Positions 1-39,253 of a DNA stretch of 39,253 nucleotides are shown in pieces. This stretch comes from Escherichia virus ECG4. Each line of letters begins with the position of its first letter. Positions within the stretch are counted from its first letter, which is position 1. The notes under the pieces are model-generated. The model was not told the DNA's origin. It worked only from the letters and a program-made list of their open reading frames with translations, and made no database searches. A program made the translations under genes and the position numbers. The DNA lies in sequence record MN218775.2; one strand, written 5' to 3'.

Positions 1-218
1 TCTCACAGTTCAAGAACCTCAAGTCTCCCCATAGGCCCTCTTTCAGTCCAGACAAAAGGCCCTACCCCAGTCTATCATAAGGCTGGACCGATGGTCAAGA
101 CGTTAGGTCAACGATAGGTTTAGGCTATGGCTGAGGTCAGGACGATAGGTAGGGACTATGGGTCTGCCTCTGAGTCCCTAGGTGTATAAGACATTACGTG
201 ACTACGTACAATCTAACT

Positions 219-301
219 ACCTACAGTCATTGACTCCTGCCTGTTTACCTACAGTCACCGACCATCGGTAAAGCCATTACCTACAGTCAAAGACCTACAG
301 T
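219..301. repeat. Left-end short direct repeats, four copies of ACCTACAGT (219-229, 247-257, 279-289, 293-301)
   Basis: Motif seen four times within 85 bp; related GACCTACRGT copies occur at the right end (39173-39203). Position matches the T7 left-end CCTAAAG-type repeats. Confidence 0.5.
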
Positions 302-404
302 TAACCGACACAAAGCTATAGACTTAAGGTCTAATACATGTTAGTCAAAGACTATATCCTCTTACACTATGGGGCCGACGATAGCTTAATCAATATTATT
401 TAAG

Positions 405-2780: not shown

Positions 2781-2803
2781 ACTTAACTATCACTATAGGA
2801 CTC
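2781..2803 (+). promoter_or_regulatory. Phage RNAP promoter located upstream of the RNAP gene itself
   Basis: TTAACTATCACTATAGGA at 2783-2800, +1 G at 2798; matches the in-genome consensus. Confidence 0.7.
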
Positions 2804-2872: not shown

Positions 2873-5554
2873 ATGAGCGTCATCTCTATTGACAAACATG
2901 ACTTCTCTGATGTGTCGAACGCCATTGAGCCGTTTAACCTGCTGGCTGACCACTACGGACAAGACCTTGCAGTCAAACAGCTTCAGCTTGAGCATGAGGC
3001 ATATACAGAAGGCGAGCGACGTTTCATCAAGAACCTTGAGCGGCAGACTGAGCGCGGGGAACTGGCAGACAATCAGGTCGCCAAGCCTTTGATGCAGACT
3101 CTGGTCCCTAAGATTGCGCAAGCCGTCAGGGAGTGGCACGAAGGCCTAGACGGGAAGCTGTCAACCTCGCGTCCTAGCGTAGCGTTCACCATGTTGAGCA
3201 CTGAAGAGAAGGCCGTTAAGGACCGCTCTATGCGCATCTCCTGTGAGTCCGCTGCGGTTATCATACTGAAGGTCATACTCTCCAAGCTGGTCAAGCCTGA
3301 AGGGATACCGATTACACCGATGGCCTCCGCGATAGGTCGCACGCTTGAGGACGAAATCCGCTTCGGTCGCATCCGTGACAAAGAGAAGGAGCACTTCAAG
3401 AAGGCGATAGCTGATAACCTGAACAAGCGAGCTGGGGCATCCTACAAGAAAGCCTACATGCAAGCGGTCGAGGCGTCCATGCTGGAGCAAGGCCAACTGG
3501 AAGATGCATGGGGTACTTGGAGTCCTACAGAGGCTGTACACGTTGGCATCAAGATGCTCGAGATTGTCATCCAGTCAACACAACTGGTCGAGCTTAAGCG
3601 GTACGGTGCTGGTAATGCAGCGGCTGACGTAGAGATGGTCCACCTGTCAGACTTCTGGGTCAAGAAGATGGCACAACGAGGATTCAGCCTTGCGGGTATC
3701 GCTCCAGTCTACCAGCCTTGCGTCGTTCCACCTAAGCCGTGGACTGGTGTCGTAGGTGGTGGGTACTGGGCCAAAGGTCGCAGACCGTTACCATTGATTC
3801 GCTTAGGGTCTAAGTCTGCGGTAGCACGTTATGAAGACGTATACATGCCTGAAGTCTATGACGCTGTGAACATCATTCAGAATACACCTTGGAAAGTTAA
3901 CAAGAAGGTATTGGACGTGGTGAACATGGTCGAGAAGCTGAACAACACGCCTATTAATGACATCCCTCAGATGGAACCGCTGAAGCCTGAGGACTATGCT
4001 GGTGAAACCGAGGAGGAACTCAAGGCATGGAAGAAGGCTGCTGCTGGTATCTATCGCCGCGAGAAGGCCAGACAGTCACGCAGATTGTCCATGAGTTTCA
4101 TCGTTCACCAGGCCAACAAGTTCTCACAGTTTAAGGCCATCTGGTTCCCGTACAACATGGATTGGCGAGGTCGTGTCTACGCTGTCCCGATGTTCAACCC
4201 TCAGGGTAACGACATGCAGAAGGGGCTCCTGACTCTGGCAGTCGGCAAGCCTATCGGGGCGGATGGTTTCAAATGGCTTAAAGTCCACGGTGCAAACTGT
4301 GCGGGTGTCGATAAAGTCACCTTCGATGAGCGCATCAAGTGGGTGGAAGACAACCACGAAAACATCATGGCTGCTGCTAAGGCACCGATGGATAGTATTG
4401 AGTGGTGGGGCAAGTTAGACTCTCCGTTCTGTTTCCTCGCGTTCTGCTTCGAGTATGCTGGCGTAATGCACCACGGCCTGTCTTACTCCTGCTCGCTGCC
4501 GATAGCGTTCGATGGGTCCTGCTCTGGTATTCAGCACTTCAGTGCGATGCTTCGTGACCACATCGGTGGACATGCAGTAAACCTGACGCCATCCGGCATG
4601 GTACAAGACATCTACCGCATTGTGTCTGACCGCATTGAGGAGGAGCTTAAAGTCCTTCTGATTAACGGTACTGACAACGAGATGGTCACTCACGAGGATA
4701 AGAAAACTGGTGAGATTACCGAACGTATCAAGCTGGGGACACGAGAGCTGGCCCGTCGGTGGCTGACATACGGTATGTCACGCAAGGTCACTAAGCGTTC
4801 AGTCATGACTCTGGCATACGGGTCGAAAGAGTACGGATTCGCAGACCAAGTTTACGAGGACATCGTGATGCCAGCGATTGACTCAGGGTCTGGCGCTATG
4901 TTCACTGAACCAAGCCAAGCGTCTCGCTTCATGGCAAAGATGATTTGGGAAGCTGTGAGTGTGACAGTAGTTGCTGCGGTTGACGCGATGAAGTGGCTTC
5001 AAGGTGCTGCCAAGCTGCTGGCTGCTGAGGTGAAGGACAAGAAGACTGGGGAAATCCTGAAGCCTTGCCTTCCGGTACACTGGGTCACACCTGATGGGTT
5101 CCCGGTCTGGCAGGAATACCGCAAGAAGGATACCACTCGTCTGAACCTGATGTTCTTAGGGTCCTTCAACCTTCAACCTACGGTCAACAAAGGTACGAAG
5201 AAAGAGCTGGACAAGCACAAGCAGGAGTCAGGCATTAGCCTTAACTTCGTCCACTCACAAGATGGTAGCCACCTGCGGAAGACTGTAGTCCACACTCACA
5301 GCAAGTATGGCGTGATGTCATTCGCAGTGATTCACGATAGCTTCGGGACCATCCCTGCTGACGCTGAGTATCTGTTCCGTGGTGTCCGTGAGACGATGGT
5401 CGAGACATACCGCGATAACGATGTGCTGCTTGACTTCTACGAGCAGTTTGAATACCAGCTTCATGAAAGCCAGCGCGACAAGTTGCCTGAGCTTCCGAAG
5501 AAAGGTAAACTGAATATCGAAGACATCTTGTCTTCAGACTTTGCATTCGCTTAA
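2873..5554 (+). CDS. Single-subunit DNA-directed RNA polymerase (T7 gene 1 homologue), 893 aa
   Basis: Length and colinear similarity to T7 RNAP, including the C-terminal HSQDGSHLRKTVV ... DSFGTIPADA ... SDFAFA. Confidence 0.97.
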   Translation: MSVISIDKHDFSDVSNAIEPFNLLADHYGQDLAVKQLQLEHEAYTEGERRFIKNLERQTERGELADNQVAKPLMQTLVPKIAQAVREWHEGLDGKLSTSRPSVAFTMLSTEEKAVKDRSMRISCESAAVIILKVILSKLVKPEGIPITPMASAIGRTLEDEIRFGRIRDKEKEHFKKAIADNLNKRAGASYKKAYMQAVEASMLEQGQLEDAWGTWSPTEAVHVGIKMLEIVIQSTQLVELKRYGAGNAAADVEMVHLSDFWVKKMAQRGFSLAGIAPVYQPCVVPPKPWTGVVGGGYWAKGRRPLPLIRLGSKSAVARYEDVYMPEVYDAVNIIQNTPWKVNKKVLDVVNMVEKLNNTPINDIPQMEPLKPEDYAGETEEELKAWKKAAAGIYRREKARQSRRLSMSFIVHQANKFSQFKAIWFPYNMDWRGRVYAVPMFNPQGNDMQKGLLTLAVGKPIGADGFKWLKVHGANCAGVDKVTFDERIKWVEDNHENIMAAAKAPMDSIEWWGKLDSPFCFLAFCFEYAGVMHHGLSYSCSLPIAFDGSCSGIQHFSAMLRDHIGGHAVNLTPSGMVQDIYRIVSDRIEEELKVLLINGTDNEMVTHEDKKTGEITERIKLGTRELARRWLTYGMSRKVTKRSVMTLAYGSKEYGFADQVYEDIVMPAIDSGSGAMFTEPSQASRFMAKMIWEAVSVTVVAAVDAMKWLQGAAKLLAAEVKDKKTGEILKPCLPVHWVTPDGFPVWQEYRKKDTTRLNLMFLGSFNLQPTVNKGTKKELDKHKQESGISLNFVHSQDGSHLRKTVVHTHSKYGVMSFAVIHDSFGTIPADAEYLFRGVRETMVETYRDNDVLLDFYEQFEYQLHESQRDKLPELPKKGKLNIEDILSSDFAFA

Positions 5555-6023: not shown

Positions 6024-6416
6024 ATGGTCGGCCTGAAGTTCAAGGCTCTGTTCAATAGCCTCTACCAGCCGACTGAGTTCAAGACCGGGCCTGGAGCATG
6101 CGGTAAGATTGTGACGCACTTCACCACGAGTCGAGACGAGCGGACCCTGACCATCCACCAGCACCACACGGATGGCTCTCAGAAGGACTACATGCTGAGA
6201 CTGAGCGACATCGACGGTCGCATCCAGTATGACTACGAGCAAGTTAAAGTCTATGGACAGGAGGCCGAACGTGAGCGAGCGATTCAGGCATTCACGCAGG
6301 TAAGACCGCGCATCATCTTACCCCTTTGCCTCCCATTGCCGTTAACCGTTAAAATTCCGTGTCGACGTACGTACGTACGTACGTACGTACGTACGTTGCA
6401 TGCATGCATGCACTAA
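6024..6416 (+). CDS. Hypothetical 130-aa ORF that runs into the tetranucleotide repeat tract
   Basis: ATG with GAGG 8 nt upstream. The last about 15 codons are translated from the (ACGT)n/(TGCA)n tract and the stop is the TAA of the downstream promoter, so the 3' end is not credible as native coding. Confidence 0.25.
   Translation: MVGLKFKALFNSLYQPTEFKTGPGACGKIVTHFTTSRDERTLTIHQHHTDGSQKDYMLRLSDIDGRIQYDYEQVKVYGQEAERERAIQAFTQVRPRIILPLCLPLPLTVKIPCRRTYVRTYVRTLHACMH
6357..6412. repeat. Perfect tetranucleotide tandem tract: SalI-like GTCGAC, then (ACGT)x8 (6365-6396), then (TGCA)x4 (6397-6412)
   Basis: Read directly from the sequence. Contains ATG in all three frames (6400, 6404, 6408) and three GCATGC sites; abuts the phi1.1-like promoter. 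Confidence 0.95.
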
Positions 6417-6434
6417 ACTATCACTATAGGATTA
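6412..6434 (+). promoter_or_regulatory. Phage RNAP promoter (phi1.1-like)
   Basis: TAAACTATCACTATAGGA at 6414-6431, +1 G at 6429. Confidence 0.75.
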
Positions 6435-8252: not shown

Positions 8253-8275
8253 CCTAAGCTATCACTATAGGACAA
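8253..8275 (+). promoter_or_regulatory. Phage RNAP promoter (phi1.5-like)
   Basis: TAAGCTATCACTATAGGA at 8255-8272, +1 G at 8270. Confidence 0.7.
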
Positions 8276-8971: not shown

Positions 8972-9130
8972 ATGATCTTTGAGGAGAAGAAATACATCGT
9001 GGAGCTTGAGGGTCGCGTCCAGTCCTTCGAGGTTCCTGTGTACGCAAAGTCTCTTGAAGAGGCTACCATGAAGTCCCAAGAGTATGAGGACGCTGGGTTT
9101 GTGGTCGGACGGATTCGTCCTGAGACCTAA
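8972..9130 (+). CDS. gp2-like inhibitor of host RNA polymerase, 52 aa
   Basis: [33 protein letters not shown] matches T7 gp2 ([34 protein letters not shown]). I chose ATG 8972, which has an AGGAG RBS, over the upstream GTG 8894. Confidence 0.7.
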
Positions 9131-9148
9131 ACTATCACTGTAGGACAG
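9126..9148 (+). promoter_or_regulatory. Phage RNAP promoter (phi2.5-like), variant with G at -3
   Basis: TAAACTATCACTGTAGGA at 9128-9145. Confidence 0.6.
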
Positions 9149-11253: not shown

Positions 11254-11278
11254 GCTAAACTATCACCTTAGGGATGGG
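11254..11278 (+). promoter_or_regulatory. Degenerate phage-promoter-like sequence (CT in place of TA at -4/-3)
   Basis: TAAACTATCACCTTAGGG at 11256-11273; the upstream 12 nt are consensus but the initiation region is altered. Confidence 0.35.
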
Positions 11279-17173: not shown

Positions 17174-17196
17174 ACTAAACTATCACTATAGGGACT
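17174..17196 (+). promoter_or_regulatory. Phage RNAP promoter (phi6.5-like)
   Basis: TAAACTATCACTATAGGGA at 17176-17194, +1 G at 17191. Confidence 0.75.
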
Positions 17197-17257
17197 TTAG
17201 GACCTAAGATATGACTATAAGATAGACTTTAGTCTTAACTTAAAGAGGAGATTCAAG

Positions 17258-17773: not shown

Positions 17774-18178
17774 ATGCTACCATATCTCAACTCACGCGAA
17801 GGTCGCCACATGTGCGCTTGTCGCCTCTGGGAAGACGGGCAGTCTAACTTCAAGTCATTCGAGGACTTCAAGGCTCATACTTACCGTATTGCTGACGAGT
17901 TCGACGGTGAAGAGTACACAATCTACGATGTCTCAGGTCAACCAGTAGCGTATCTCTACATGCTGGCTACCACATCTTGGCACCGACCGACTCCCGGTCT
18001 TGACCTTTCAATCGTCGCTATTCGTCGTGACTCGCAGTCCTCCCGCAAGGTTCTTGAGACTGTCAGGTACATCATAGACGAAGAGTGCAAGCGTTGGGGT
18101 CTTGGCTGGTATTCTCGTGTCAAGCATGTTTCCGGGTCGGTAGACATCGTAACAACCAAGGAGATTAACCGTGGGTAA
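17774..18178 (+). CDS. gp7-like protein, 134 aa
   Basis: Position and length (T7 gp7 is 133 aa). Confidence 0.6.
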   Translation: MLPYLNSREGRHMCACRLWEDGQSNFKSFEDFKAHTYRIADEFDGEEYTIYDVSGQPVAYLYMLATTSWHRPTPGLDLSIVAIRRDSQSSRKVLETVRYIIDEECKRWGLGWYSRVKHVSGSVDIVTTKEINRG

Positions 18179-18419
18179 ATCAATCAGTAAGGCCTTCAGT
18201 AAAGTAGTAAAAGGTGCTTTGGGGACCGTTGGTCTTGGTAACGATGTTTCACCTAAGGTTGTTGAGGCTCAGACCCCAGCAGCGCCAGTGGAAGTACCGA
18301 ACGACAAAGTGGAAGATGTGGATACCGAAGCGACTGCATCTGACGAGAAGAAAGTGAAGCGTTCCGGTAAGCGGAGCCTTCAGGTCTCTCGCACCTCTGG
18401 TGGCGGTATTTCTATATAA
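18171..18419 (+). CDS. gp7.3-like tail/adsorption protein, 82 aa
   Basis: MGK start, Lys/Val-rich N-terminus and C-terminal SGGGISI as in T7 gp7.3 (...SGGGINI). Confidence 0.75.
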   Translation: MGKSISKAFSKVVKGALGTVGLGNDVSPKVVEAQTPAAPVEVPNDKVEDVDTEATASDEKKVKRSGKRSLQVSRTSGGGISI

Positions 18420-18430
18420 GGAGGTGACGA

Positions 18431-19999
18431 ATGGCTGAACGTGAAGGGTTCGCTGCTGAAGGCGCTAAGTCAGTTTATGATAGATTGAAGAACGGACGAC
18501 AGCCTTACGAGACCCGCGCACAGAACTGTGCTGCTGTCACTATCCCGTCACTGTTTCCTAAGGAATCAGACAACTCGTCTACTGAATATACCACTCCGTG
18601 GCAAGCTGTAGGTGCTCGCTGTCTGAACAACTTGGCTGCAAAGCTGATGTTGGCGTTATTCCCTCAGTCACCGTGGATGCGACTGACAGTCTCCGAATAT
18701 GAGGCAAAGACCTTGAGTCAGGACTCAGAGGCCGCTGCTCGTGTTGACGAAGGGCTGGCTATGGTCGAGCGGGTGTTGATGGCCTACATGGAGACTAACA
18801 GTTTCCGTGTCCCATTGTTCGAAGCTCTGAAGCAGCTTATAGTCTCCGGTAACTGTCTGCTCTACATTCCGCCTCCTGAACAGGGAACCTACAGTCCTAT
18901 GCGAATGTACCGCTTAGTGTCATACGTTGTTCAACGTGATGCGTTCGGTAACATCTTGCAGATTGTGACTCTCGACAAGGTAGCGTTTAGTGCTCTACCG
19001 GAGGACGTGAAGTCTCAACTCAACGCAGATGACTATGAGCCTGACACCGAGCTGGAAGTGTATACGCACATCTACCGTCAGGACGACGAGTATCTACGCT
19101 ACGAGGAAGTGGAAGGCATTGAGGTAGCAGGGACCGATGGTTCTTACCCACTGACTGCCTGTCCATACATCCCGGTACGAATGGTTCGACTGGATGGTGA
19201 AGACTACGGTCGTTCTTACTGCGAGGAGTATCTGGGAGACCTCAACTCGCTGGAGACGATTACAGAAGCTATCACCAAAATGGCTAAGGTAGCCTCCAAG
19301 GTGGTGGGCCTCGTTAACCCGAACGGTATCACACAACCTCGTCGTCTGAACAAGGCGGCTACAGGTGAGTTCGTGGCTGGTCGCGTTGAGGACATCAACT
19401 TCCTGCAACTGACGAAAGGTCAGGACTTTACGATTGCTAAATCGGTAGCTGACGCTATCGAGCAACGTTTAGGCTGGGCCTTCCTTCTTAATAGTGCCGT
19501 TCAGCGTAATGCCGAGCGAGTCACTGCTGAAGAGATTCGTTATGTTGCTGGCGAACTGGAGGCGACCTTAGGTGGCGTGTACTCAGTACAGTCACAAGAG
19601 CTTCAGTTACCTATCGTCCGTGTGCTGATGAACCAGCTTCAGTCTGCTGGCATGATTCCTGACCTTCCGAAAGAAGCAGTAGAGCCTACTGTCTCCACAG
19701 GTCTTGAAGCGTTAGGTCGTGGTCAGGACTTGGAGAAGCTGACTCAGGCGGTTAACATGATGACTGGTCTTCAGCCACTATCTCAGGACCCGGACATCAA
19801 CTTGCCGACCCTTAAGCTACGACTCCTGAACGCTCTGGGTATCGACACCGCTGGCCTACTCCTGACGCAAGACGAGAAGATTCAGCGCATGGCTGAGCAG
19901 TCGTCTCAACCGGCAGTTGTCAATGGTGCGGCCGCTGCTGGTGCTAACATGGGCGCTGCTGTAGGTCAGGGAGCTGGTGAGGACATGGCTCAAGCCTAA
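18431..19999 (+). CDS. Portal (head-tail connector) protein (T7 gene 8 homologue), 522 aa
   Basis: Position before scaffold and capsid; length close to T7 gp8. Confidence 0.92.
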   Translation: MAEREGFAAEGAKSVYDRLKNGRQPYETRAQNCAAVTIPSLFPKESDNSSTEYTTPWQAVGARCLNNLAAKLMLALFPQSPWMRLTVSEYEAKTLSQDSEAAARVDEGLAMVERVLMAYMETNSFRVPLFEALKQLIVSGNCLLYIPPPEQGTYSPMRMYRLVSYVVQRDAFGNILQIVTLDKVAFSALPEDVKSQLNADDYEPDTELEVYTHIYRQDDEYLRYEEVEGIEVAGTDGSYPLTACPYIPVRMVRLDGEDYGRSYCEEYLGDLNSLETITEAITKMAKVASKVVGLVNPNGITQPRRLNKAATGEFVAGRVEDINFLQLTKGQDFTIAKSVADAIEQRLGWAFLLNSAVQRNAERVTAEEIRYVAGELEATLGGVYSVQSQELQLPIVRVLMNQLQSAGMIPDLPKEAVEPTVSTGLEALGRGQDLEKLTQAVNMMTGLQPLSQDPDINLPTLKLRLLNALGIDTAGLLLTQDEKIQRMAEQSSQPAVVNGAAAAGANMGAAVGQGAGEDMAQA

Positions 20000-20017
20000 A
20001 CTATCACTATAGGAACA
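19995..20017 (+). promoter_or_regulatory. Phage RNAP promoter (phi9-like)
   Basis: TAAACTATCACTATAGGA at 19997-20014, +1 G at 20012. Confidence 0.75.
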
Positions 20018-20114
20018 CCTAAAGTAACACCGTTTAAGCCAACTCTAGGGGAGTTTTAAACTAGACTTTGTAGGCAGGTGTTGGCCTATTAACGACTTAA
20101 AGGAGAATGACTCA

Positions 20115-21005
20115 ATGTCTCAATCAGTTTATGCCGAGTTCGGCGTTAGCTCTAATGCAATCACTGGTTCCGTTGAGGACCTGAACGAACACCAGAAGTC
20201 TATGCTTGAACAGGACGTATCGGTTCGTGATGGCGACGATGCTATTACCTTCAAGCAACTGGAAGCTGAAACCGAAGAGGCTACCGAAGAAGACGATAAC
20301 GTCGACGAGACTGAAGGTGTTTTTTACGAAGACCACGAGTCCGATGACGAAGAGTCTGAGACCGATGGTGAGCAGCCTGAGTTCATCGAACTGGGTGATG
20401 CACCAAAAGAGCTGACCGAAAGTGTCACCGCTCTGGATGAAAACGAAGCTGCATTCGACGACCTGGTGTCTTCTGCTGTAGAAGCTGGCAAGGTCACTGC
20501 TGATGAAATTACCGCTATCAAGGCTGAATACGCCAAGGACGGTAAGCTGTCTGACGCATCCTACGCTAAGTTGCAGGAAGCAGGTTACACCAAGCGTTTC
20601 GTAGATTCGTTTGTCCGTGGTCAGGAAGCTCTTGCTGAACAGTATGCTGCTGGTGTGGTTCGCTACGCTGGTGGTGCTGAACAGTTTAATCGCATCCTGT
20701 CACACCTTGAGTCCAACGACCCGTCAACTCGTGAAGCACTTGAAGCTGCTATCGTTCGTAAGGACATTGCGACTACCAAAGCTCTGCTGAATCTGGCTGG
20801 CAAGACTCTGGGTAAAGCTGTAGGTGTTAAACCTCAGCGAACCATCACCACTCAGGCTAAACCTGTGGTCGCACCTAAGGCTCCTCAGACAGAAGCATTC
20901 AGCTCCAAGGCTGACATGATTAAGGCTATGAGTGACCCGCGATACCTGCGTGACGCTAAGTACACGATGGAAGTTCGCGCTAAGGTAGCTGCCTCAAGCC
21001 TGTAG
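20115..21005 (+). CDS. Scaffolding protein (T7 gene 9 homologue), 296 aa
   Basis: Highly acidic, Glu/Asp/Ala-rich; position between portal and capsid. Confidence 0.88.
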   Translation: MSQSVYAEFGVSSNAITGSVEDLNEHQKSMLEQDVSVRDGDDAITFKQLEAETEEATEEDDNVDETEGVFYEDHESDDEESETDGEQPEFIELGDAPKELTESVTALDENEAAFDDLVSSAVEAGKVTADEITAIKAEYAKDGKLSDASYAKLQEAGYTKRFVDSFVRGQEALAEQYAAGVVRYAGGAEQFNRILSHLESNDPSTREALEAAIVRKDIATTKALLNLAGKTLGKAVGVKPQRTITTQAKPVVAPKAPQTEAFSSKADMIKAMSDPRYLRDAKYTMEVRAKVAASSL

Positions 21006-21006
21006 G

Positions 21007-21029
21007 ACTAAACTATCACTATAGGGAGA
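21007..21029 (+). promoter_or_regulatory. Phage RNAP promoter (phi10-like), full consensus including GGGAGA
   Basis: TAAACTATCACTATAGGGAGA at 21009-21029, +1 G at 21024. Confidence 0.8.
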
Positions 21030-22451: not shown

Positions 22452-22488
22452 CCCCTTGGGTGCCTTCGGGTGCTTGAGGGTTTTTTTT
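22452..22488 (+). terminator. Tphi-like intrinsic terminator after the capsid gene
   Basis: 12-bp stem CCCTTGGGTGCC / GGTGCTTGAGGG with G-U pairs, TTCG loop, T8 run; resembles T7 Tphi. Confidence 0.8.
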
Positions 22489-22503
22489 GCTTAAGGAGGG
22501 CCT

Positions 22504-23070
22504 ATGGCTCAATACATTCCACTGAACGCTAACGATGACTTAGATGCCATCAACGATATGTTAGCTGCTATAGGTGAACCAGCAGTCCTACAGCTTGACG
22601 AGGGTAACGCTGACGTCTCTAACGCACAACGTATCCTGCATCGTGTCAATCGTCAGGTCCAAGCTAAAGGCTGGAACTTTAACATCAACGAAGCTGCTGT
22701 CCTGACACCTGATGTCCAAGACAATAGGATTCGATTCCTTCCGTCTTACCTTCGTGTAATGACCGCTGGGGCCACCAGCTACTACAGCAACATGGGTGGA
22801 TACCTGTACGACCTGTCCACTCAGTCAACCACTTTCACCGACCCTATAACGGTAGAGCTTGTTGAGATGAAACCGTTCTCTGAGATGCCTGTGGTATTCA
22901 GGGACTACATCGTTACCAAGGCCAGCCGTGAGTTCAACGCTAAGTTCTTCGGTAGCCCAGAGTCTGAACTGTACCTTCGTGAGCAGGAAGCAGAGCTCTA
23001 TCAGCAGGTCATGGAATACGAGATGGACACTGGTCGATACAACATGATGTCCGACATCGGGAGGGACTAA
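22504..23070 (+). CDS. Tail tubular protein A (T7 gene 11 homologue), 188 aa
   Basis: Position and length. Confidence 0.88.
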   Translation: MAQYIPLNANDDLDAINDMLAAIGEPAVLQLDEGNADVSNAQRILHRVNRQVQAKGWNFNINEAAVLTPDVQDNRIRFLPSYLRVMTAGATSYYSNMGGYLYDLSTQSTTFTDPITVELVEMKPFSEMPVVFRDYIVTKASREFNAKFFGSPESELYLREQEAELYQQVMEYEMDTGRYNMMSDIGRD

Positions 23071-23297
23071 TGGCTAGTCACAACCTGAAGATTCACCGCC
23101 AGCACTTTGGTCCGGTACAACTAGGTTTAAAGACAGCAGAGCTGAGACTTAACGACAGGGACTTTAAGGTTGGCGATTGGCTTATCCTGAATGAGTGGGA
23201 CAACGGGTATACTGGGCAACAGGTAGCACGTAAGGTTGTCCATGTGGCTGACGTTGGTGACATCGCTGAAGGATACGTCCTAATCAGTATGATTTAA
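23070..23297 (+). CDS. Accessory protein, 75 aa, possibly ASCH/DUF3850-like, inserted between the tail genes
   Basis: ATG overlaps the gene 11 stop. KIHRQHFGPVQLGLKTAELRLNDRDFKVGDWLILNEWD resembles the DUF3850 pattern as I recall it (unverified). Confidence 0.55.
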   Translation: MASHNLKIHRQHFGPVQLGLKTAELRLNDRDFKVGDWLILNEWDNGYTGQQVARKVVHVADVGDIAEGYVLISMI

Positions 23298-25688: not shown

Positions 25689-25711
25689 CCTTAACTATCA
25701 CTATAGGGACT
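25689..25711 (+). promoter_or_regulatory. Phage RNAP promoter (phi13-like)
   Basis: TTAACTATCACTATAGGGA at 25691-25709, +1 G at 25706. Confidence 0.75.
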
Positions 25712-32000: not shown

Positions 32001-32969
32001 TACCTGTTAGATGCTGGACGTCAGGGATTCCTGTCCGACATCGTGGAACATAGTCTGACTGGCAGTAAGCGTCGGTTCGATGACCGCTGGCTTAAGACCG
32101 CTGGTATCTCCGACGAGCAGTGGAAGGGCATTAAGTCCCTAATCAGTGAGTCAGTGACTCGAGGTCCAGACGGGAAGTATACCATCAAGGATAAGAAGGC
32201 GTTCAGTCAGGACCCAAGGGCTATGGACCTGTGGCGTATGGGTGACACCATCGCTGACGAAACGTTACTCCGGCCCCACAAGCTGTCAAACATGGACGCC
32301 AAGGCTTATGGTCCTCTCGCTAAGACTGTCCTTCAGTTTAAGAACTTCGTCATCAAGTCCATCAATGGACGTACCATGCGAACCTTCTATAACGCCACGA
32401 AGAACAACCGAGCGATGGACGCTGCTCTGTCCACTGTGATCTCTATGGGTCTTGCTGGTATCTACTACATGGCTCAGGCGCATGTCAAGGCTTACGCTAT
32501 GCAGGATGGTCGAGACCGTGACTACCTCAAGCAAGCTCTGGACCCGACGATGATTGGATATGCAGCTCTATCACGTAGTTCACACCTTGGTGGACCACTT
32601 GGGGTAGCTAACATTCTGGGCGGAATCGCTGGGTATGAGGACACTAAGATGCTCCGTTCGTCTATCCTACCTCGTTCGCCTACAGAGAAGCCTGAACGTG
32701 CCATCGCGTATGGTGCGGCTACAAGTGACCCTGTTATGAATGTTGTTGGTAACTTCTTGGAGCAGGTTCCAGCTTTCGGATATGCTGCTAACGTTGGCGC
32801 TTCGGCTTACAACTTGGCTGGCTACCTCAAGGCTGATACTCGCGTCAACGAGCGTGACTACATGACCGGGATGTATAATACGTTCCGTGAACTGGTTCCG
32901 AACGACCCAATTACCCAGAAGCTGTTGCTTGGAACGTTTGAGGAGCAAGGCATCCACATCAAGGACTAA
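29064..32969 (+). CDS. Internal core protein D (T7 gene 16 homologue), 1301 aa, with a non-T7 N-terminal module
   Basis: Long colinear similarity to T7 gp16 over the C-terminal 1100 aa (NSFLEARNLFDSD, DIAIMAGTGKTTK, HAALSRSS). The N-terminal 120 aa (NNPGNIR ...) differs from the T7 transglycosylase region. Confidence 0.9.
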   Translation: MVRSNIMATRGIRNNNPGNIRVSKDQWEGMTGDDGAFVTFDSPESGVRALGKNLLSYGRQGYDSIEKIINRWAPPNENDTKAYIDSVVAATGIPATQSLDLSNPDTLSALAQAISFHETGSRYNPEVYQKGVERALNGISPKTPPVSANVFDALTEGLKAKPKVALGENLPNAAGLNIEGQASEAPNESFGEMFYKSTGETMQEREDRSTWFGFGEATKAEVKNSMIGVAIRAGQTEDSLDVIGDVFNPTRWNNHKWSREELDQIRNAGVLPQYYGVITGGSPQNLTELINLALENQKLDQEKAKAGIGAQLAAGVIGAGVDPLTYVPIAGQVGKGGKLVNKMFTVAAQSGALSGVSEMARTSVAGGDAHVAEAILGGALFGGGMTAIADGLGRALGRNTNEFAGPATRLEARETARNVDGQDLSRLPIQEGEQTFSHQGVKFADVPNEPGSVRLEDGSILIGENPLNPKTRQVFDEVIEPERAAAGVNLGGLTEIGLKLLRSENPEIRGVAADLVRSPTGMQSGASGKIGTTASDVFERLRAVDHRFYNDIDDAVTEALKDPYFQTAFWRDSGAFRQDIYQRVSMAIEDGSGNLKAELTTGELKVYDLLKNQFDAKREMMENPAMFGRQDAQSIFPGSRFKGTYVPHVYSKQMKELYIKELGSPEALQEAIKKSWLTSYASRPEVKKRVDEALLEADPTLTPEGLAAAVDKYANDKAYGISHTEQFERSSVMEENINGLVGLENNSFLEARNLFDSDMSIVLPNGQTFSVNNLREWDMDKIVPAYNRRVNGDIAIMAGTGKTTKDMKDLVETMMNKAGDDGKLKGEVSTLRDTLKILTGRARRDGADDAAFATVMRTMTDLSFFAKNAYMGVQNLTEIGGMLARGNVRAMLHGVPMFRDLAFRNKKVGASEIKDLHNVIFGKELDDSIRPSKQDVIDRLRSYSDLGRWAATALGTAKYYTGELAVRSPFTKVLNGTTNYLLDAGRQGFLSDIVEHSLTGSKRRFDDRWLKTAGISDEQWKGIKSLISESVTRGPDGKYTIKDKKAFSQDPRAMDLWRMGDTIADETLLRPHKLSNMDAKAYGPLAKTVLQFKNFVIKSINGRTMRTFYNATKNNRAMDAALSTVISMGLAGIYYMAQAHVKAYAMQDGRDRDYLKQALDPTMIGYAALSRSSHLGGPLGVANILGGIAGYEDTKMLRSSILPRSPTEKPERAIAYGAATSDPVMNVVGNFLEQVPAFGYAANVGASAYNLAGYLKADTRVNERDYMTGMYNTFRELVPNDPITQKLLLGTFEEQGIHIKD

Positions 32970-32987
32970 ACTATCACTATAGGAAAC
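32965..32987 (+). promoter_or_regulatory. Phage RNAP promoter (phi17-like)
   Basis: TAAACTATCACTATAGGA at 32967-32984, +1 G at 32982. Confidence 0.75.
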
Positions 32988-33033: not shown

Positions 33034-35667
33034 ATGTCCACGATTACACAATTCCCTTCAGGAAACACTCGTTACAGGATTGAGTTCGACTACCTAGCCA
33101 GAACGTTTGTTGTTGTTACGCTGGTGAATAGCTCTAACCCTGCCCTGAACCGTGTACTGGAAGTTGGTCGAGATTACCGATTCCTTAATCCAACGATGAT
33201 TGAGATGTTGGTTGACCAATCAGGTTTCGACATCGTTCGTATTCACCGTCAGACTGGAACTGACTTAGTGGTAGACTTCAGGAATGGCTCAGTGTTGACA
33301 GCTAGTGACCTGACCAATGCAGAGCTTCAGGCTATCCATATTGCAGAAGAAGGTCGAGACCAAACTGTTGACTTAGCGAAGGAATATGCCGATGCTGCTG
33401 GTAACTCTGCTGGCAACGCTAAGGATAGCGAGGACGAAGCACGACGAATCGCTGAGAGTATCAAGGCATCTGGTCTTCTTGGCTATATTACCCGTCGCTC
33501 CTTCGAGAAAGGCTTCAACGTTACAATATGGAACGAGGTACTGCTATGGGAAGAGGATGGTGATTATTACCGATGGGATGGTGGACTGCCAAAAAACGTA
33601 CCTGTTGGTTCAACTCCTGAAACGTCTGGCGGCGTTGGTTTGGGTGCGTGGGTTAGTGTTGGTGATGCGTCATTGCGCGCCGATATTGCAAACCTTTACC
33701 AACCGGAACAAATTTATTCGGCACAAAAACGGGAAACACTGTCTACAGTCCTGAGCAGCCGTTGGGCTAATTCGGGAGCAGATAAAAAGAAATTCGTTTT
33801 GACCTGCCATTACTATTCCCAGATTACGATGCTATTCTGGCGGCACACCCTGACTGGACGTTTATTTATCCGGGGTCATTCTGTATCGGGGATGATGGCA
33901 AAATCTATATTACATATGGCCCAAGTAACAACGCAGCTACGGAACGTTTCGTTGTACTTTACTCAGGTGAAGGTGAATACTTACGTATCTCCAGACTATT
34001 ATTGGAGGCACCGGGGTAAATGGTTCTGCGGTATCCGAGGGATTATCGTAACCAATTACTATGGTTCACTTAAGTTATTCCTTGATCCTACGATGGTAAC
34101 TTACCTGAGTTTGATATCTCAGCAGTGCCCTACGGCACCACGATTAGCTATACAGCGTTACACCAAGTGGGTCTGGGCATTAACCGTCAACGTAATGTTA
34201 TTGCGTACTTCAACCCGCATTTGCATTAACTGGTTTCACGGAATTTTCTCCGTATCATGCTGGATACATCACGTCAACTACTACTCATTACGGGTCACTT
34301 CAAACTATGCGACAAGCAATCTGTTTAGCTCCCGGTGTTTTGATCATGGCATTTGGTGGTGTTTACATTACAGGAACAACTGTACAAGCGCCTACTATTT
34401 ATCAGGGTACAAGCATTTAGCACTGATGGGCACAAAATGGTACAGGCAGTACTACCCCTACTCATTTTATTACTGTTTTGATGCTACAGGGTTAATGACC
34501 TCTCGTATAGAGAATCAGGGTGTCTGCTATTCAAATGGTCAAGTATTTACTTTCTGGATTTATATCAATACAACTGCCTCAAATGCGTATACTATCGGTA
34601 TCCTGATTACTCAAGAATATTCGAACTCCCCGGATTTGATTTTTCTGGGGCGGTTACGGTATCCCCGGTTACGATACTGTTCGAATGGCTTCTGGGTTTA
34701 CCCTCGTATTCTCTTACAGATCTGGATGGAGTTGCCTACCCAATTGGGATACAGCTTCATATCAGCAACCTCAATAACCTCAGCTTCTATAGATCAGACT
34801 GGGCCACTACCCGTAAGACTCTGCGCGTTACTTATCACACTTCCGGTTATACCGTATTTACTGGGGCTATCGGTTTACAGACTTATCGCTTATCCCTCAA
34901 TAATACTGACTCTGGTGCATTATCCCAAGGTCGAATTGCAGCTAGGGCTTTCGGTAATAAAACTTTATCCGAATCAGAACAGATTCTTGTCCTCGATCAA
35001 CAAAGTTCCGCATCTGCACATTCTCTTATCTTACGTGGTGGATCGTCGGTATTTAAGAGTGCTACGTCTATTATATCTATACGCCATCGAATACTGCCAC
35101 CTACGGTTTCGGGCGACGGATTACTACCAAAACATACATCTCTACGTCCATACACAGATAACGCTTACAATTTACGCGGCCCAGCATTACGTGTGGCTCA
35201 AGTCTTCGCAGCGATTGGTACTATTAATACGTCCGACTCCCGTGAAAAACTTACCCGTTTCAAATCTCGGATCATATCCTTCATGCCTGGGCGACGTGCA
35301 GATAATCACGTACAAGTGGTTATCTTCTATTGCGGGTACAGGTGCAGATTCTGCTCGTTGGCATTTCGGGTATTTGCCCAGCAAGTTCGTGATGCCTTCG
35401 TATAGCATGGTTTCATGGTACTACCTTCGGTCTGCTTTGCTATGTCGAGTGGGAAGATCAGTATCAACCTCAGTTCGTTCATCAGGTTATCACTGTTATT
35501 ATTCATGGTGTAGATACCGAAGTTACCCGTCAAGTGGAAACCGGTATTACCATACTTACTACAGCTGCCGGTCATCGCTGGGGCATTCGTCCAGATCAGT
35601 GTTTCTGGTTGAGGCCGCTTATCAGCGACGTCGCTGCGACAGGATTGAAACACGACTGACTGACTGA
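33034..35667 (+). CDS. Tail fiber/tailspike ORF, 877 aa: T7 gp17-like N-terminal adaptor domain, then an anomalous central region
   Basis: N-terminal about 230 aa matches T7 gp17 ([36 protein letters not shown]). From about 33750 to 35600 the open frame encodes a Tyr/Cys/Trp/His-rich, Asp/Glu/Lys-poor sequence. The ORF ends in the three-frame stop TGACTGACTGA. Confidence 0.5.
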
Positions 35668-38645: not shown

Positions 38646-38668
38646 ACTTAACTATCACTATAGGGAAG
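38646..38668 (+). promoter_or_regulatory. Phage RNAP promoter (phiOR-like) near the right end
   Basis: TTAACTATCACTATAGGGA at 38648-38666, +1 G at 38663. Confidence 0.75.
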
Positions 38669-38848
38669 ACCCCCGGTTACTTATAGTATTACTGTAGTGA
38701 ATATACATATGTAGACTTTATGCAAGACCTTAGGAGGCAGACTCCGAGTTCTTACCTAAGGCTTGCACCGATGGAAGGAGGGTGATATTAATCATAATCC
38801 CTCCTATACAGATAGTTAAAGACCATAGATACAGGAGGTATGTAGCAT

Positions 38849-39007
38849 ATGGCAAAGACCAAAGCTGTACTTAAAGCTCTGGCGACCAATCGAGCTACAT
38901 ACAGGTTTCTTGCTGCTGTTCTACTTGCTGCTGGCGTTACTGCTGGAAGTCAGTGGGTCGGGTGGGTCGAGACTCTCGTATGTTCTCTGGTCTCTCAGTG
39001 TAATTAA
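38849..39007 (+). CDS. gp19.5-like small protein, 52 aa (below the ORF-track cutoff)
   Basis: AGGAGG RBS; NRATYRFLAAVLLAAG resembles T7 gp19.5 (RVTYRFLVVLCAALG) as I recall it. Confidence 0.6.
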   Translation: MAKTKAVLKALATNRATYRFLAAVLLAAGVTAGSQWVGWVETLVCSLVSQCN

Positions 39008-39042
39008 CGCAATCATAGTAACGATTCATGAGTGGAAGACCT

Positions 39043-39081
39043 AAGGTCAGTACGTGGATAAAGACTCACTCTACTGACCTT
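39043..39081 (+). other. Perfect 10-bp inverted repeat AAGGTCAGTA / TACTGACCTT (19-nt loop) near the right end
   Basis: Read directly; no downstream T-run, so probably not an intrinsic terminator. Confidence 0.6.
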
Positions 39082-39172
39082 AGCTACTGTAGTCAAGGAC
39101 TTTAGGTAACACCATTTAGAAGCTCACTTAGGGTCATCCTACTTATTGGTCTACTAGTTGTCATCCTAGTGT

Positions 39173-39203
39173 CTTTGACCTACGGTCCTTGACCTACAGT
39201 AGC
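39173..39203. repeat. Right-end GACCTACRGT direct repeats
   Basis: TTGACCTACGGTCCTTGACCTACAGTAG; same motif family as the left-end repeats. Confidence 0.5.
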
Positions 39204-39253
39204 TGCCACCTACGTTGTCACGATGAGTTTTGGACCAAAAGTTTGAGACCACA

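Follow-up and report, generated by a model that had tools for sequence, protein, structure and literature searches.

The RNA polymerase of Escherichia virus ECG4 and the eleven promoters of its genome very probably represent a K1F-type phage RNAP/promoter pair driving the middle and late genes. Both the repeated motif and the divergent specificity loop are real, yet the pair has already been described, experimentally tested and turned into a synthetic-biology part.

Genome context

The window, i.e., the whole analysed stretch of 39,253 nucleotides (MN218775.2), is an almost complete Kayfunavirus genome (K1F-like, T7-like coliphage). It is syntenic with Escherichia phage K1F (Kayfunavirus K1F, NC_007456) from gene 0.3 to gene 19.5, the K1F proteins mapping onto it colinearly, while the two phages have different tailspike sequences after residue 220 and differ in some of their small accessory ORFs. 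The genomes of Escherichia virus LS3 / LS2 (MN518893, MN518894) begin at the same coordinate as ECG4, with 99.2% nucleotide identity across the first 25 kb (value for LS3). No terminal direct repeat was found between the first 400 and the last 600 bases, so that the record contains a single copy of it, and scans of the early region for sigma-70 promoters did not rise above the level of shuffled sequences. Similarly to T7, a Tphi-like terminator is present behind the capsid gene (Table 1).

Table 1. Location of the polymerase gene, its recognition elements, the promoters and the terminator in the ECG4 window
Feature	Position	+1	Strand	Evidence and remarks
Gene 1, single-subunit DNA-dependent RNA polymerase, 893 aa	2873..5554		+	Pfam, structure match, T7 alignment
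AT-rich recognition loop equivalent (T7 93-101), DGKLSTSRPSV, aa 93-103	3149..3181		+	RNAP alignment; putative role
Specificity beta-hairpin TTRLNLMFLGSFNLQPTV, aa 754-771 (T7 744-761)	5132..5185		+	RNAP alignment
Stretch quoted in the initial annotation, FNLQPTVNKGTKKELDKHKQ, aa 765-784 (T7 755-774)	5165..5224		+	Translation, RNAP alignment
Promoter, 75 nt upstream of RNAP gene	2781..2801	2798	+	PWM 34.2 bits; orthologue K1F 2478
Promoter, phi1.1-like, between gene 1.05 homologue and genes 1.1/1.2/ligase	6412..6432	6429	+	Motif, K1F orthologue
Promoter, phi1.6-like, variant G at -12	8253..8273	8270	+	Same variant at K1F 7187; Ro45lw equivalent annotated phi1.6
Promoter, phi2.5-like, variant G at -3	9126..9146	9143	+	Same variant at K1F 8503; Ro45lw equivalent annotated phi2.5
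Promoter, upstream of primase/helicase gene, variants C at -4, T at -3	11254..11274	11271	+	Weakest, 28.2 bits; same variants at K1F 10870
Promoter, phi6.5-like	17174..17194	17191	+	Motif, PWM, K1F orthologue
Promoter, phi9-like (scaffold gene)	19995..20015	20012	+	Motif, PWM, K1F orthologue
Promoter, phi10-like (major capsid gene), starts GGGAGA as T7	21007..21027	21024	+	PWM, K1F orthologue
Promoter, phi13-like	25689..25709	25706	+	Motif, PWM, K1F orthologue
Promoter, phi17-like (tailspike gene)	32965..32985	32982	+	Motif, PWM, K1F orthologue
Promoter, phiOR-like, near right end	38646..38666	38663	+	Motif, PWM, K1F orthologue
Tphi-like intrinsic terminator	22453..22490		+	12-bp stem then T8; after capsid gene region

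RNA polymerase

The gene 1 product is a T7-like single-subunit RNA polymerase. It matched the Pfam catalytic domain RNA_pol (PF00940, 1.4e-103) and the N-terminal domain RPOL_N (PF14700, 1e-16), both beyond the curated cut-offs; its residues 1-893 aligned full-length to residues 1-883 of 1CEZ, 1QLN and other T7 RNAP structures (1273 bits), and the protein alignment gave 64% identity to T7 RNAP. The alignment took in the polymerases of T7, T3, K11, K1F, ECG4 and SP6, and the catalytic and substrate-selection residues D537, K631, Y639, H784 and D812 (T7 numbering) occupied invariant columns across all six. The T7 and ECG4 polymerases belong to one fold family and share their catalytic residues, and their promoters are built on the same plan.

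The identity to the K1F polymerase was 98%. The 17 amino acid differences include L92 (P in K1F), adjoining the N-terminal recognition loop, and L790 (likewise P in K1F), located 9 residues past the specificity loop. The LS3 polymerase gene was 99.8% identical to that of ECG4, with 6 nucleotide and 3 amino acid differences (M107K, R629Q and L790P, ECG4 residue first). The P-to-L change at aa 790 (T7 P780; CTT instead of CCT, nt 5241) is private to the ECG4 polymerase, this proline being otherwise invariant from T7 to SP6.

Promoter set

The search with the 17-mer TAAACTATCACTATAGG confirmed the eleven repeated promoter-like sites proposed in the initial annotation: at up to two mismatches it gave 11 plus-strand matches against a chance expectation of 0.07, a number attained in none of 100 shuffles. 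The statement that all eleven share the 17-mer was correct for five exact copies, while the other six carry one mismatch (five sites) or two (one site). The C at -16 is also invariant, making the conserved element one base longer (CTWAACTATCACTATAGG), and the consensus (A/C)CTWAACTATCACTATAGG(G/A)A covers 21-23 bp with the G marked +1 as the predicted start. The native consensus promoter of ECG4 reads ACTAAACTATCACTATAGGGA, with both C-16 and T-15 invariant in the native promoters. With a position weight matrix (PWM) built from the 11 sites themselves, these sites scored 28-37 bits, the next best 14.1 bits and shuffled sequences up to 15.2 bits; no weaker additional promoters were found above the shuffle range in the PWM scan of the window. 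A minus-strand near-match at 38803-38819 (13.5 bits, 3 mismatches) departs from the motif at both invariant positions -6/-5 and was rejected as a chance occurrence.

All eleven sites are on the coding strand, closely upstream of genes 1, 1.1, 1.6, 2.5, 4, 6.5, 9, 10, 13 and 17, plus one at the right end, and their placement before gene blocks resembles that of the T7 promoters. The ORF upstream of the 6412 promoter matched Pfam Phage_T3_1_05, and the gene context agreed with the LS3 annotation. T7 has 17 promoters; ECG4 has 11, one of them directly upstream of gene 1. A promoter upstream of its own RNAP gene was also observed in Shigella phage SFP21B.

The block -12 to -8 reads ACTAT in 10 of the 11 sites and GCTAT in the remaining one, whose K1F orthologue has the same variant; the reading ACTAT against CGACT in T7, taking the first G of GG as +1, was right. 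The initiation region -7 to +2 (CACTATAGG) is exact in eight sites, and deviations within it are confined to -4/-3 in two sites (9128 and 11256), so that the claimed identity to T7 from -7 to +1 is valid for the consensus, but not for these two. Deviations from the consensus occurred only in promoters of the early/DNA-metabolism region, as in T7 class II promoters. The T7 promoters have the same -7 to +1 consensus and the same +1 G, in contrast to the upstream positions, where CGAC at -12 to -9 and TAATA at -17 to -13 stand against ACTA and (A/C)CTWA in ECG4. The K1F genome also has 11 promoters, one-to-one orthologous with those of ECG4 and with the same consensus, and the K1F variant sites AGCTAT, CACTGTAGG and CACCTTAGG are also present at the ECG4 orthologues.

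The purified polymerase of Kayfunavirus Ro45lw transcribes from ACTTAACTATCACTATAGGGA with the mapped +1 being G (Takatsuki et al., 2025, PMC12272871). This phage belongs to the same genus, and its polymerase is 93.5% identical to that of ECG4 (58 amino acid differences). The Ro45lw minimal promoter is found verbatim at 38646-38666 of ECG4 and, except for -17, also at 25689-25709, where the sequence from -16 to +6 (CTTAACTATCACTATAGGGACT) is identical to the promoter used with the purified enzyme. The probability that the repeats are dispersed elements of another kind, e.g., recombination or packaging signals, is practically negligible: nothing specific speaks for it, while the core from -7 to +2 is identical to T7-family promoters, every copy lies on the coding strand ahead of gene blocks, and an identical sequence drives in vitro transcription by the closely similar Ro45lw polymerase.

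Specificity hairpin

The hairpin of ECG4 is identical to that of K1F (T7 744-761, N748/N756/Q758), and a 44-aa region around the loop was unchanged in 136 phage records. The initial annotation had placed the loop at 5160-5230, which includes only the C-terminal half of the hairpin, while bases 5132-5164 encode the N-terminal strand, in which the counterparts of T7 R746 and N748 lie. Both sequences quoted there were correct: bases 5165-5224 of ECG4 do translate into the quoted stretch, and FRLQPTINTNKDSEIDAHKQ corresponds to T7 residues 755-774. The quoted ECG4 stretch includes N766 (T7 R756) and Q768 (T7 Q758); its remaining changes, at T7 763-771, fall outside the grafted hairpin.

The base-contacting residues of T7 RNAP are R746, N748, R756 and Q758 (PMC11880802). 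One of these four is altered in ECG4, where N766 takes the place of T7 R756, while R746, N748 and Q758 are conserved as R756, N758 and Q768, respectively. The further hairpin changes are Q744T, Q754S and I761V (T7 numbering), making four differing positions together with R756N. The proposal that the changes sit at the T7 contacts to -11 to -8 was therefore sustained for R756N, but not for N748 (-10/-11 in T7) and Q758 (-8), both unchanged, nor for the changes clustered at T7 763-771, since the known contact positions lie elsewhere. N748 is unchanged despite the difference at -11/-10 from T7 (GA to CT); with N748 kept while these bases change, a one-residue-one-base code is insufficient for the whole ACTAT block.

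The features of the T7 specificity class are absent from ECG4, which has N at the R756 position and ACTAT instead of CGACT at -12 to -8, and so are those of the T3 class, since N748 is retained and ACTAT is present instead of ACCCT. Both T3-class features are present in SFP21B, also a Kayfunavirus, whose polymerase carries D748/R756/Q758 and whose promoters read ACCCT at -12 to -8.

It is very unlikely that the specificity is set mainly by the cluster at T7 762-771 and not by the hairpin residues 748/756/758. This cluster, changed from NTNKDSEIDA in T7 to NKGTKKELDK in ECG4, is indeed where T7 and K1F diverge most within the loop region, and SFP21B with its different promoter also differs there (KSGSK). 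However, when the 744-761 segment alone was grafted from K1F into T7 RNAP, with T7 762-771 kept, this sufficed for activity on the ACTAT promoter (Temme et al., 2012, PMC3458549). Furthermore, Ro45lw differs from ECG4 in the loop region by T765S in the cluster and M750L in the hairpin (T7 numbering), yet has the same promoter, and the switch to ACCCT in SFP21B coincides with the known T3-type D748 plus R756.

Comparison with characterized pairs

The cognate block -12 to -8 of T7 RNAP carrying the K1F hairpin (754S, 756N, 761V) is ACTAT (PMC11880802, Table 2; PMC3458549), and the same hairpin residues and block as in ECG4 are found in the engineered T7(K1F) polymerase with PK1F (Temme et al., 2012, PMC3458549; for the K1FR sigma fragment, see Segall-Shapiro et al., 2014, PMC4299498). 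The K1F loop with the ACTAT block separates from the T7, T3 and N4-type promoters (PMC3458549), which supports the functional part of the original idea, namely that the specificity of the pair differs from that of T7. A later comparison found the K1F orthogonality to be modest (score, 8) and described the non-cognate activity as "relatively high" (PMC11880802). Most published measurements of K1F orthogonality were made not on the native pair but on the T7 chimera, combined with a hybrid promoter that joins ACTAT to the upstream half of the T7 promoter. In T7(K1F), the enzyme outside the hairpin and the promoter upstream of the block are both T7 sequence, so that neither the N-terminal loop nor the C-16/T-15 of the native pair is present. 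The native K1F RNAP with the PK1F promoter has been used in Halomonas and E. coli, and this pair is orthogonal to both the MmP1 and the VP4 system (PMC12218169).

The novelty of the pair was not upheld, since characterized phage polymerases with this promoter consensus exist in K1F, T7(K1F) and Ro45lw. It is true that the ACTAT block and the loop differ from those of T7, T3, K11 and SP6, and that no published cross-tests of K1F against SP6 or K11 promoters were found in the literature search. Nevertheless, an uncharacterized pair adding a new orthogonal specificity beside T7, T3, SP6 and K11 is extremely unlikely: the loop is identical to that of K1F and the promoters are K1F orthologues, the combination of K1F loop and ACTAT promoter was published as an orthogonal part as early as 2012, the native K1F and Ro45lw polymerases have been characterized, and the same repeat has already been reported as a promoter in another Kayfunavirus (PMC13298934).

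Probable mechanism of promoter recognition

As a K1F-type pair, the gene 1 polymerase would transcribe the middle and late genes from the eleven promoters, starting at the +1 G. Transcription from the ACTAT promoter, the start at G and the separation from T7, T3 and N4-type promoters would be expected in ECG4 by analogy with the K1F and Ro45lw literature, the start at G specifically from the 5'-end sequencing in Ro45lw. The part from -7 to +2, which serves melting and initiation, is shared by T7-family promoters, while the specificity beta-hairpin would recognize the ACTAT block through the major groove. In the putative residue-to-base assignments, the change of R756 to N is the hairpin change at a known base contact and matches the replacement of the C:G pair at -9 by A:T.

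The longer N-terminal loop would be the second module, probably adding discrimination and likely reading the invariant C-16/T-15. It is two residues longer than that of T7 and strongly unlike those of T7, T3 and K11. Its probable role in recognition is suggested by covariation with the -16 base within the genus: in SFP21B, a T3/T7-like N-terminal loop occurs alongside T/A in place of C at -16. A more far-reaching proposal is rather doubtful, i.e., that an as yet undissected N-terminal module, non-homologous to that of T7, reads C-16/T-15 and makes the native pair more orthogonal than the chimera and, separately, that P790L is no sequencing error and alters the behaviour of the polymerase.

Implications

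Confident annotation of the polymerase, its 11 promoters and the Tphi-like terminator is now possible in ECG4, with little import beyond that; synthetic biology already has the K1F specificity as a standard orthogonal part. As a correction to the initial annotation, the loop change that matters is R756N within the 744-761 hairpin, and not the 763-771 cluster. Minor by-products are the invariant C-16/T-15, the private change of ECG4 at an otherwise invariant proline and the co-switching in SFP21B, where the two recognition modules have changed in concert with the two promoter halves inside one genus.

Genome identity

Over its first 25 kb, the genome has 99.2% identity with Escherichia virus LS3 and the same start coordinate, and the proteins of Escherichia phage K1F (NC_007456) are colinear on it from gene 0.3 to gene 19.5. 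On the basis of this identity and colinearity, the window is a near-complete K1F-like genome with a single terminal-repeat copy. While the records of K1F and of the Kayfunavirus Ro45lw contain direct terminal repeats (190 bp in Ro45lw), the window and LS3 have one copy only, and no exact words of 12 or more bases were common to both ends of the window (1-400 against 38654-39253).

Gene 17 (33034-35667, +) encodes an 877-aa tailspike with Phage_T7_tail and Tail_spike_N domains, in which only the first ~220 aa are common with the K1F endosialidase. Because the receptor-binding part differs, the host capsule or O-antigen specificity of the phage is not K1. An ORF of 75 aa with a DUF3850/ASCH domain (23070-23297, +), annotated as 'RNA-binding protein' in LS3, is located between tail genes 11 and 12, in contrast to K1F, where it is absent and the two genes abut. 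Another ORF (6024-6416, +; 130 aa) has the T3 gene 1.05 domain (PF25755) and ends at the phi1.1-like promoter; no K1F match was found in this interval.

Phage promoters and transcription layout

Searching the whole window with the 17-mer TAAACTATCACTATAGG at up to two mismatches resulted in 11 plus-strand matches, of which five are perfect, five carry a single mismatch and one carries two, against a mean of 0.07 by chance in dinucleotide-preserving shuffles. A position weight matrix spanning -17 to +4, trained on these sites, gave them 28.2–36.7 bits, with the next best site in the window at 14.1 and shuffled genomes reaching up to 15.2 bits. Given this gap and the shuffle counts, the motif is real and present in exactly eleven copies. 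The initial annotation was thus right about the recurrence, but overstated that all eleven share the 17-mer, which, moreover, leaves out an invariant C at -16. With +1 assigned to the first of the two terminal G residues, the start mapped experimentally for a near-identical promoter, the consensus reads (A/C)-17 C-16 T-15 W-14 A A C T A T C A C T A T A G+1 G, with C-16, T-15, -11 to -5 and -2 to +2 being invariant.

Phage-type promoters and terminator of the window (each promoter is assigned to the gene immediately downstream)
Feature	Coordinates	+1	Strand	Remark
Before gene 1	2781-2801	2798	+	75 nt 5' of RNAP start 2873
Before genes 1.1/1.2/ligase		6429	+	
Before gene 1.6		8270	+	variant AGCTATC
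Before gene 2.5		9143	+	variant CACTGTAGG
Before gene 4		11271	+	variant CACCTTAGG
Before gene 6.5		17191	+	
Before gene 9		20012	+	
Before gene 10		21024	+	
Before gene 13		25706	+	
Before gene 17		32982	+	
Right end	38646-38666	38663	+	
Tphi-like hairpin then T8	22453-22490			after capsid gene region

All non-consensus sites were confined to the early and DNA-metabolism region, while the structural-gene promoters either matched the consensus or deviated only at the W position. T7 promoters are divided into class II and class III, and the distribution of variant and consensus sites mirrors this split. In contrast to T7, whose record has only the E. coli C promoter and no phage promoter directly upstream of the RNA polymerase (RNAP) gene, the window has a phage promoter at this place, which implies positive autoregulation of the RNAP. 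A phage-type promoter directly 5' of the RNAP gene is also present in K1F (2478) and in Shigella phage SFP21B (OQ031073).

Two weaker sequences scored within the chance range. The degenerate CCTAAGATATGACTATAAGAT at 17203-17223 (+; 14.1 bits), 29 nt 3' of the phi6.5-like promoter and kept in K1F at 17206, could be a decayed tandem promoter copy or merely conserved leader sequence. The near-match TTAACTATCTGTATAGG at 38803-38819 (-; 13.5 bits), with three mismatches, some at the invariant -6/-5, is convergent with the phiOR-like promoter ~140 bp away and had no K1F counterpart at the same stringency.

RNA polymerase and its specificity hairpin

The interval 5160-5230 is itself no promoter; it sits within the RNAP gene (2873-5554) and encodes ...GSFNLQPTVNKGTKKELDKHKQES... 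The protein has RNA_pol and RPOL_N domains, aligns over its whole length with known T7 RNAP structures and retains D537, K631, Y639, H784 and D812 in an alignment of the T7, T3, K11, K1F, window and SP6 enzymes, where in the loop region the T7 residue number is that of the window minus 10. The gene was 99.8% identical to those of LS3 and LS2 (MN518893, MN518894) and 95–98% identical to those of many Kayfunavirus isolates.

The base-specific contacts in T7 RNAP, as quoted in PMC11880802 from Cheetham et al. (1999), are made by R746, N748, R756 and Q758. Their window equivalents are R756, N758, N766 and Q768, so that only T7 R756 is replaced. Across the hairpin Q744-I761, the segment exchanged by Temme et al., the changes are Q744T, Q754S, R756N and I761V. 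The 20-residue stretch considered initially corresponds to T7 755-774, including R756N and Q758, and its other changes past I761, the last grafted residue, are T763K, N764G, K765T, D766K, S767K, I769L and A771K. The proposal that the substitutions coincide with the T7 residues contacting -11 to -8 therefore holds for R756N with -9 C:G to A:T, which would fit the usual Arg-G and Asn-A preferences, but not for the other residues and base pairs. N748 is kept even though -11/-10 are GA in T7 and CT here, which means that the way it reads the bases must be context-dependent.

Only 17 of 893 residues differ from the K1F RNAP, none of them within the specificity loop, and the 44 residues around the loop were 100% identical in 136 phage records. 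Outside the loop, aa 92 (3146-3148), directly before the N-terminal recognition loop, is Leu as in LS3, and Pro in K1F and Ro45lw. A CCT to CTT change at nt 5241 (codon 5240-5242) replaces Pro with Leu at aa 790 (T7 P780), nine residues C-terminal to the specificity loop and four N-terminal to H784. This position is Pro in LS3, K1F, Ro45lw, SFP21B, T7, T3, K11 and SP6; Leu was found in 0 of the 136 records whose loop region is identical in all other respects, and no phage record matched a 58-aa query containing it. Leu790 may be a genuine variant or result from a sequencing error.

Natural variation within Kayfunavirus

Ro45lw has M750L and T765S (T7 numbering) and uses the same promoter. SFP21B, classified in the same genus, has an RNAP (17781-20447) 87% identical to that of the window, with the T3-type combination D748/R756/Q758, and twelve promoters reading WTTAAACCCTCACTATAGG, with the T3-like ACCCT at -12 to -8 instead of ACTAT. 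Its N-terminal recognition loop is shorter and T7/T3-like (…TQGSTRGKPQVAF versus …GLDGKLSTSRPSVAF in the window), and -16 is T or A in contrast to the invariant C. Thus, the two recognition modules and the two halves of the promoter covary within the genus, where both modules have switched, possibly by recombination. This covariation supports hairpin positions 748/756 as the putative determinants of -12 to -8, and, as the N-terminal loop and the -16 base change together, suggests that this loop in K1F-type RNAPs would read C-16/T-15.

Relation to characterised K1F-type systems

All eleven promoters have orthologous sites in K1F, which share the idiosyncratic variants before genes 1.6, 2.5 and 4. 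Phage RNAPs have been grouped by hairpin, with one promoter binding-region consensus per subfamily, and the K1F hairpin grafted into T7 RNAP gave 17-fold induction on its cognate promoter and was orthogonal to T7, T3 and N4-type pairs (Temme et al., 2012, PMC3458549). The K1F-hairpin T7 variant (632S, 754S, 756N, 761V; cognate block ACTAT) exactly matches the window in residues and block, albeit the orthogonality of the variant set was rated only 8, with 'relatively high' non-cognate activity (PMC11880802 Table 2). A K1F-loop sigma fragment was improved by M750R (Segall-Shapiro et al., 2014, PMC4299498). In Halomonas and E. coli, native K1F RNAP paired with PK1F has been used both to drive expression and for targeted mutagenesis, and showed little crosstalk with the MmP1 and VP4 systems (PMC12218169). 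The Ro45lw RNAP, 93.5% identical to the window enzyme, has been purified, and its minimal promoter ACTTAACTATCACTATAGGGA, with +1 mapped to G (Takatsuki et al., 2025, PMC12272871), occurs verbatim as the right-end promoter. Furthermore, CTWAACTATCACTATAGG has been described as the repeated promoter sequence in a further Kayfunavirus (PMC13298934; 2026 genome note). The literature search found no published cross-tests of the K1F-type pair against SP6 or K11 promoters.

With the K1F hairpin graft, native K1F and Ro45lw, phage RNAPs with the same promoter consensus have already been characterised, which is what the initial annotation had named as refuting its proposal, while the functional interpretation of a distinct promoter/RNAP specificity was broadly right. 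Judged by sequence, the pair falls into the well-known K1F specificity class, and the promoter/RNAP pair of the window is therefore already known.
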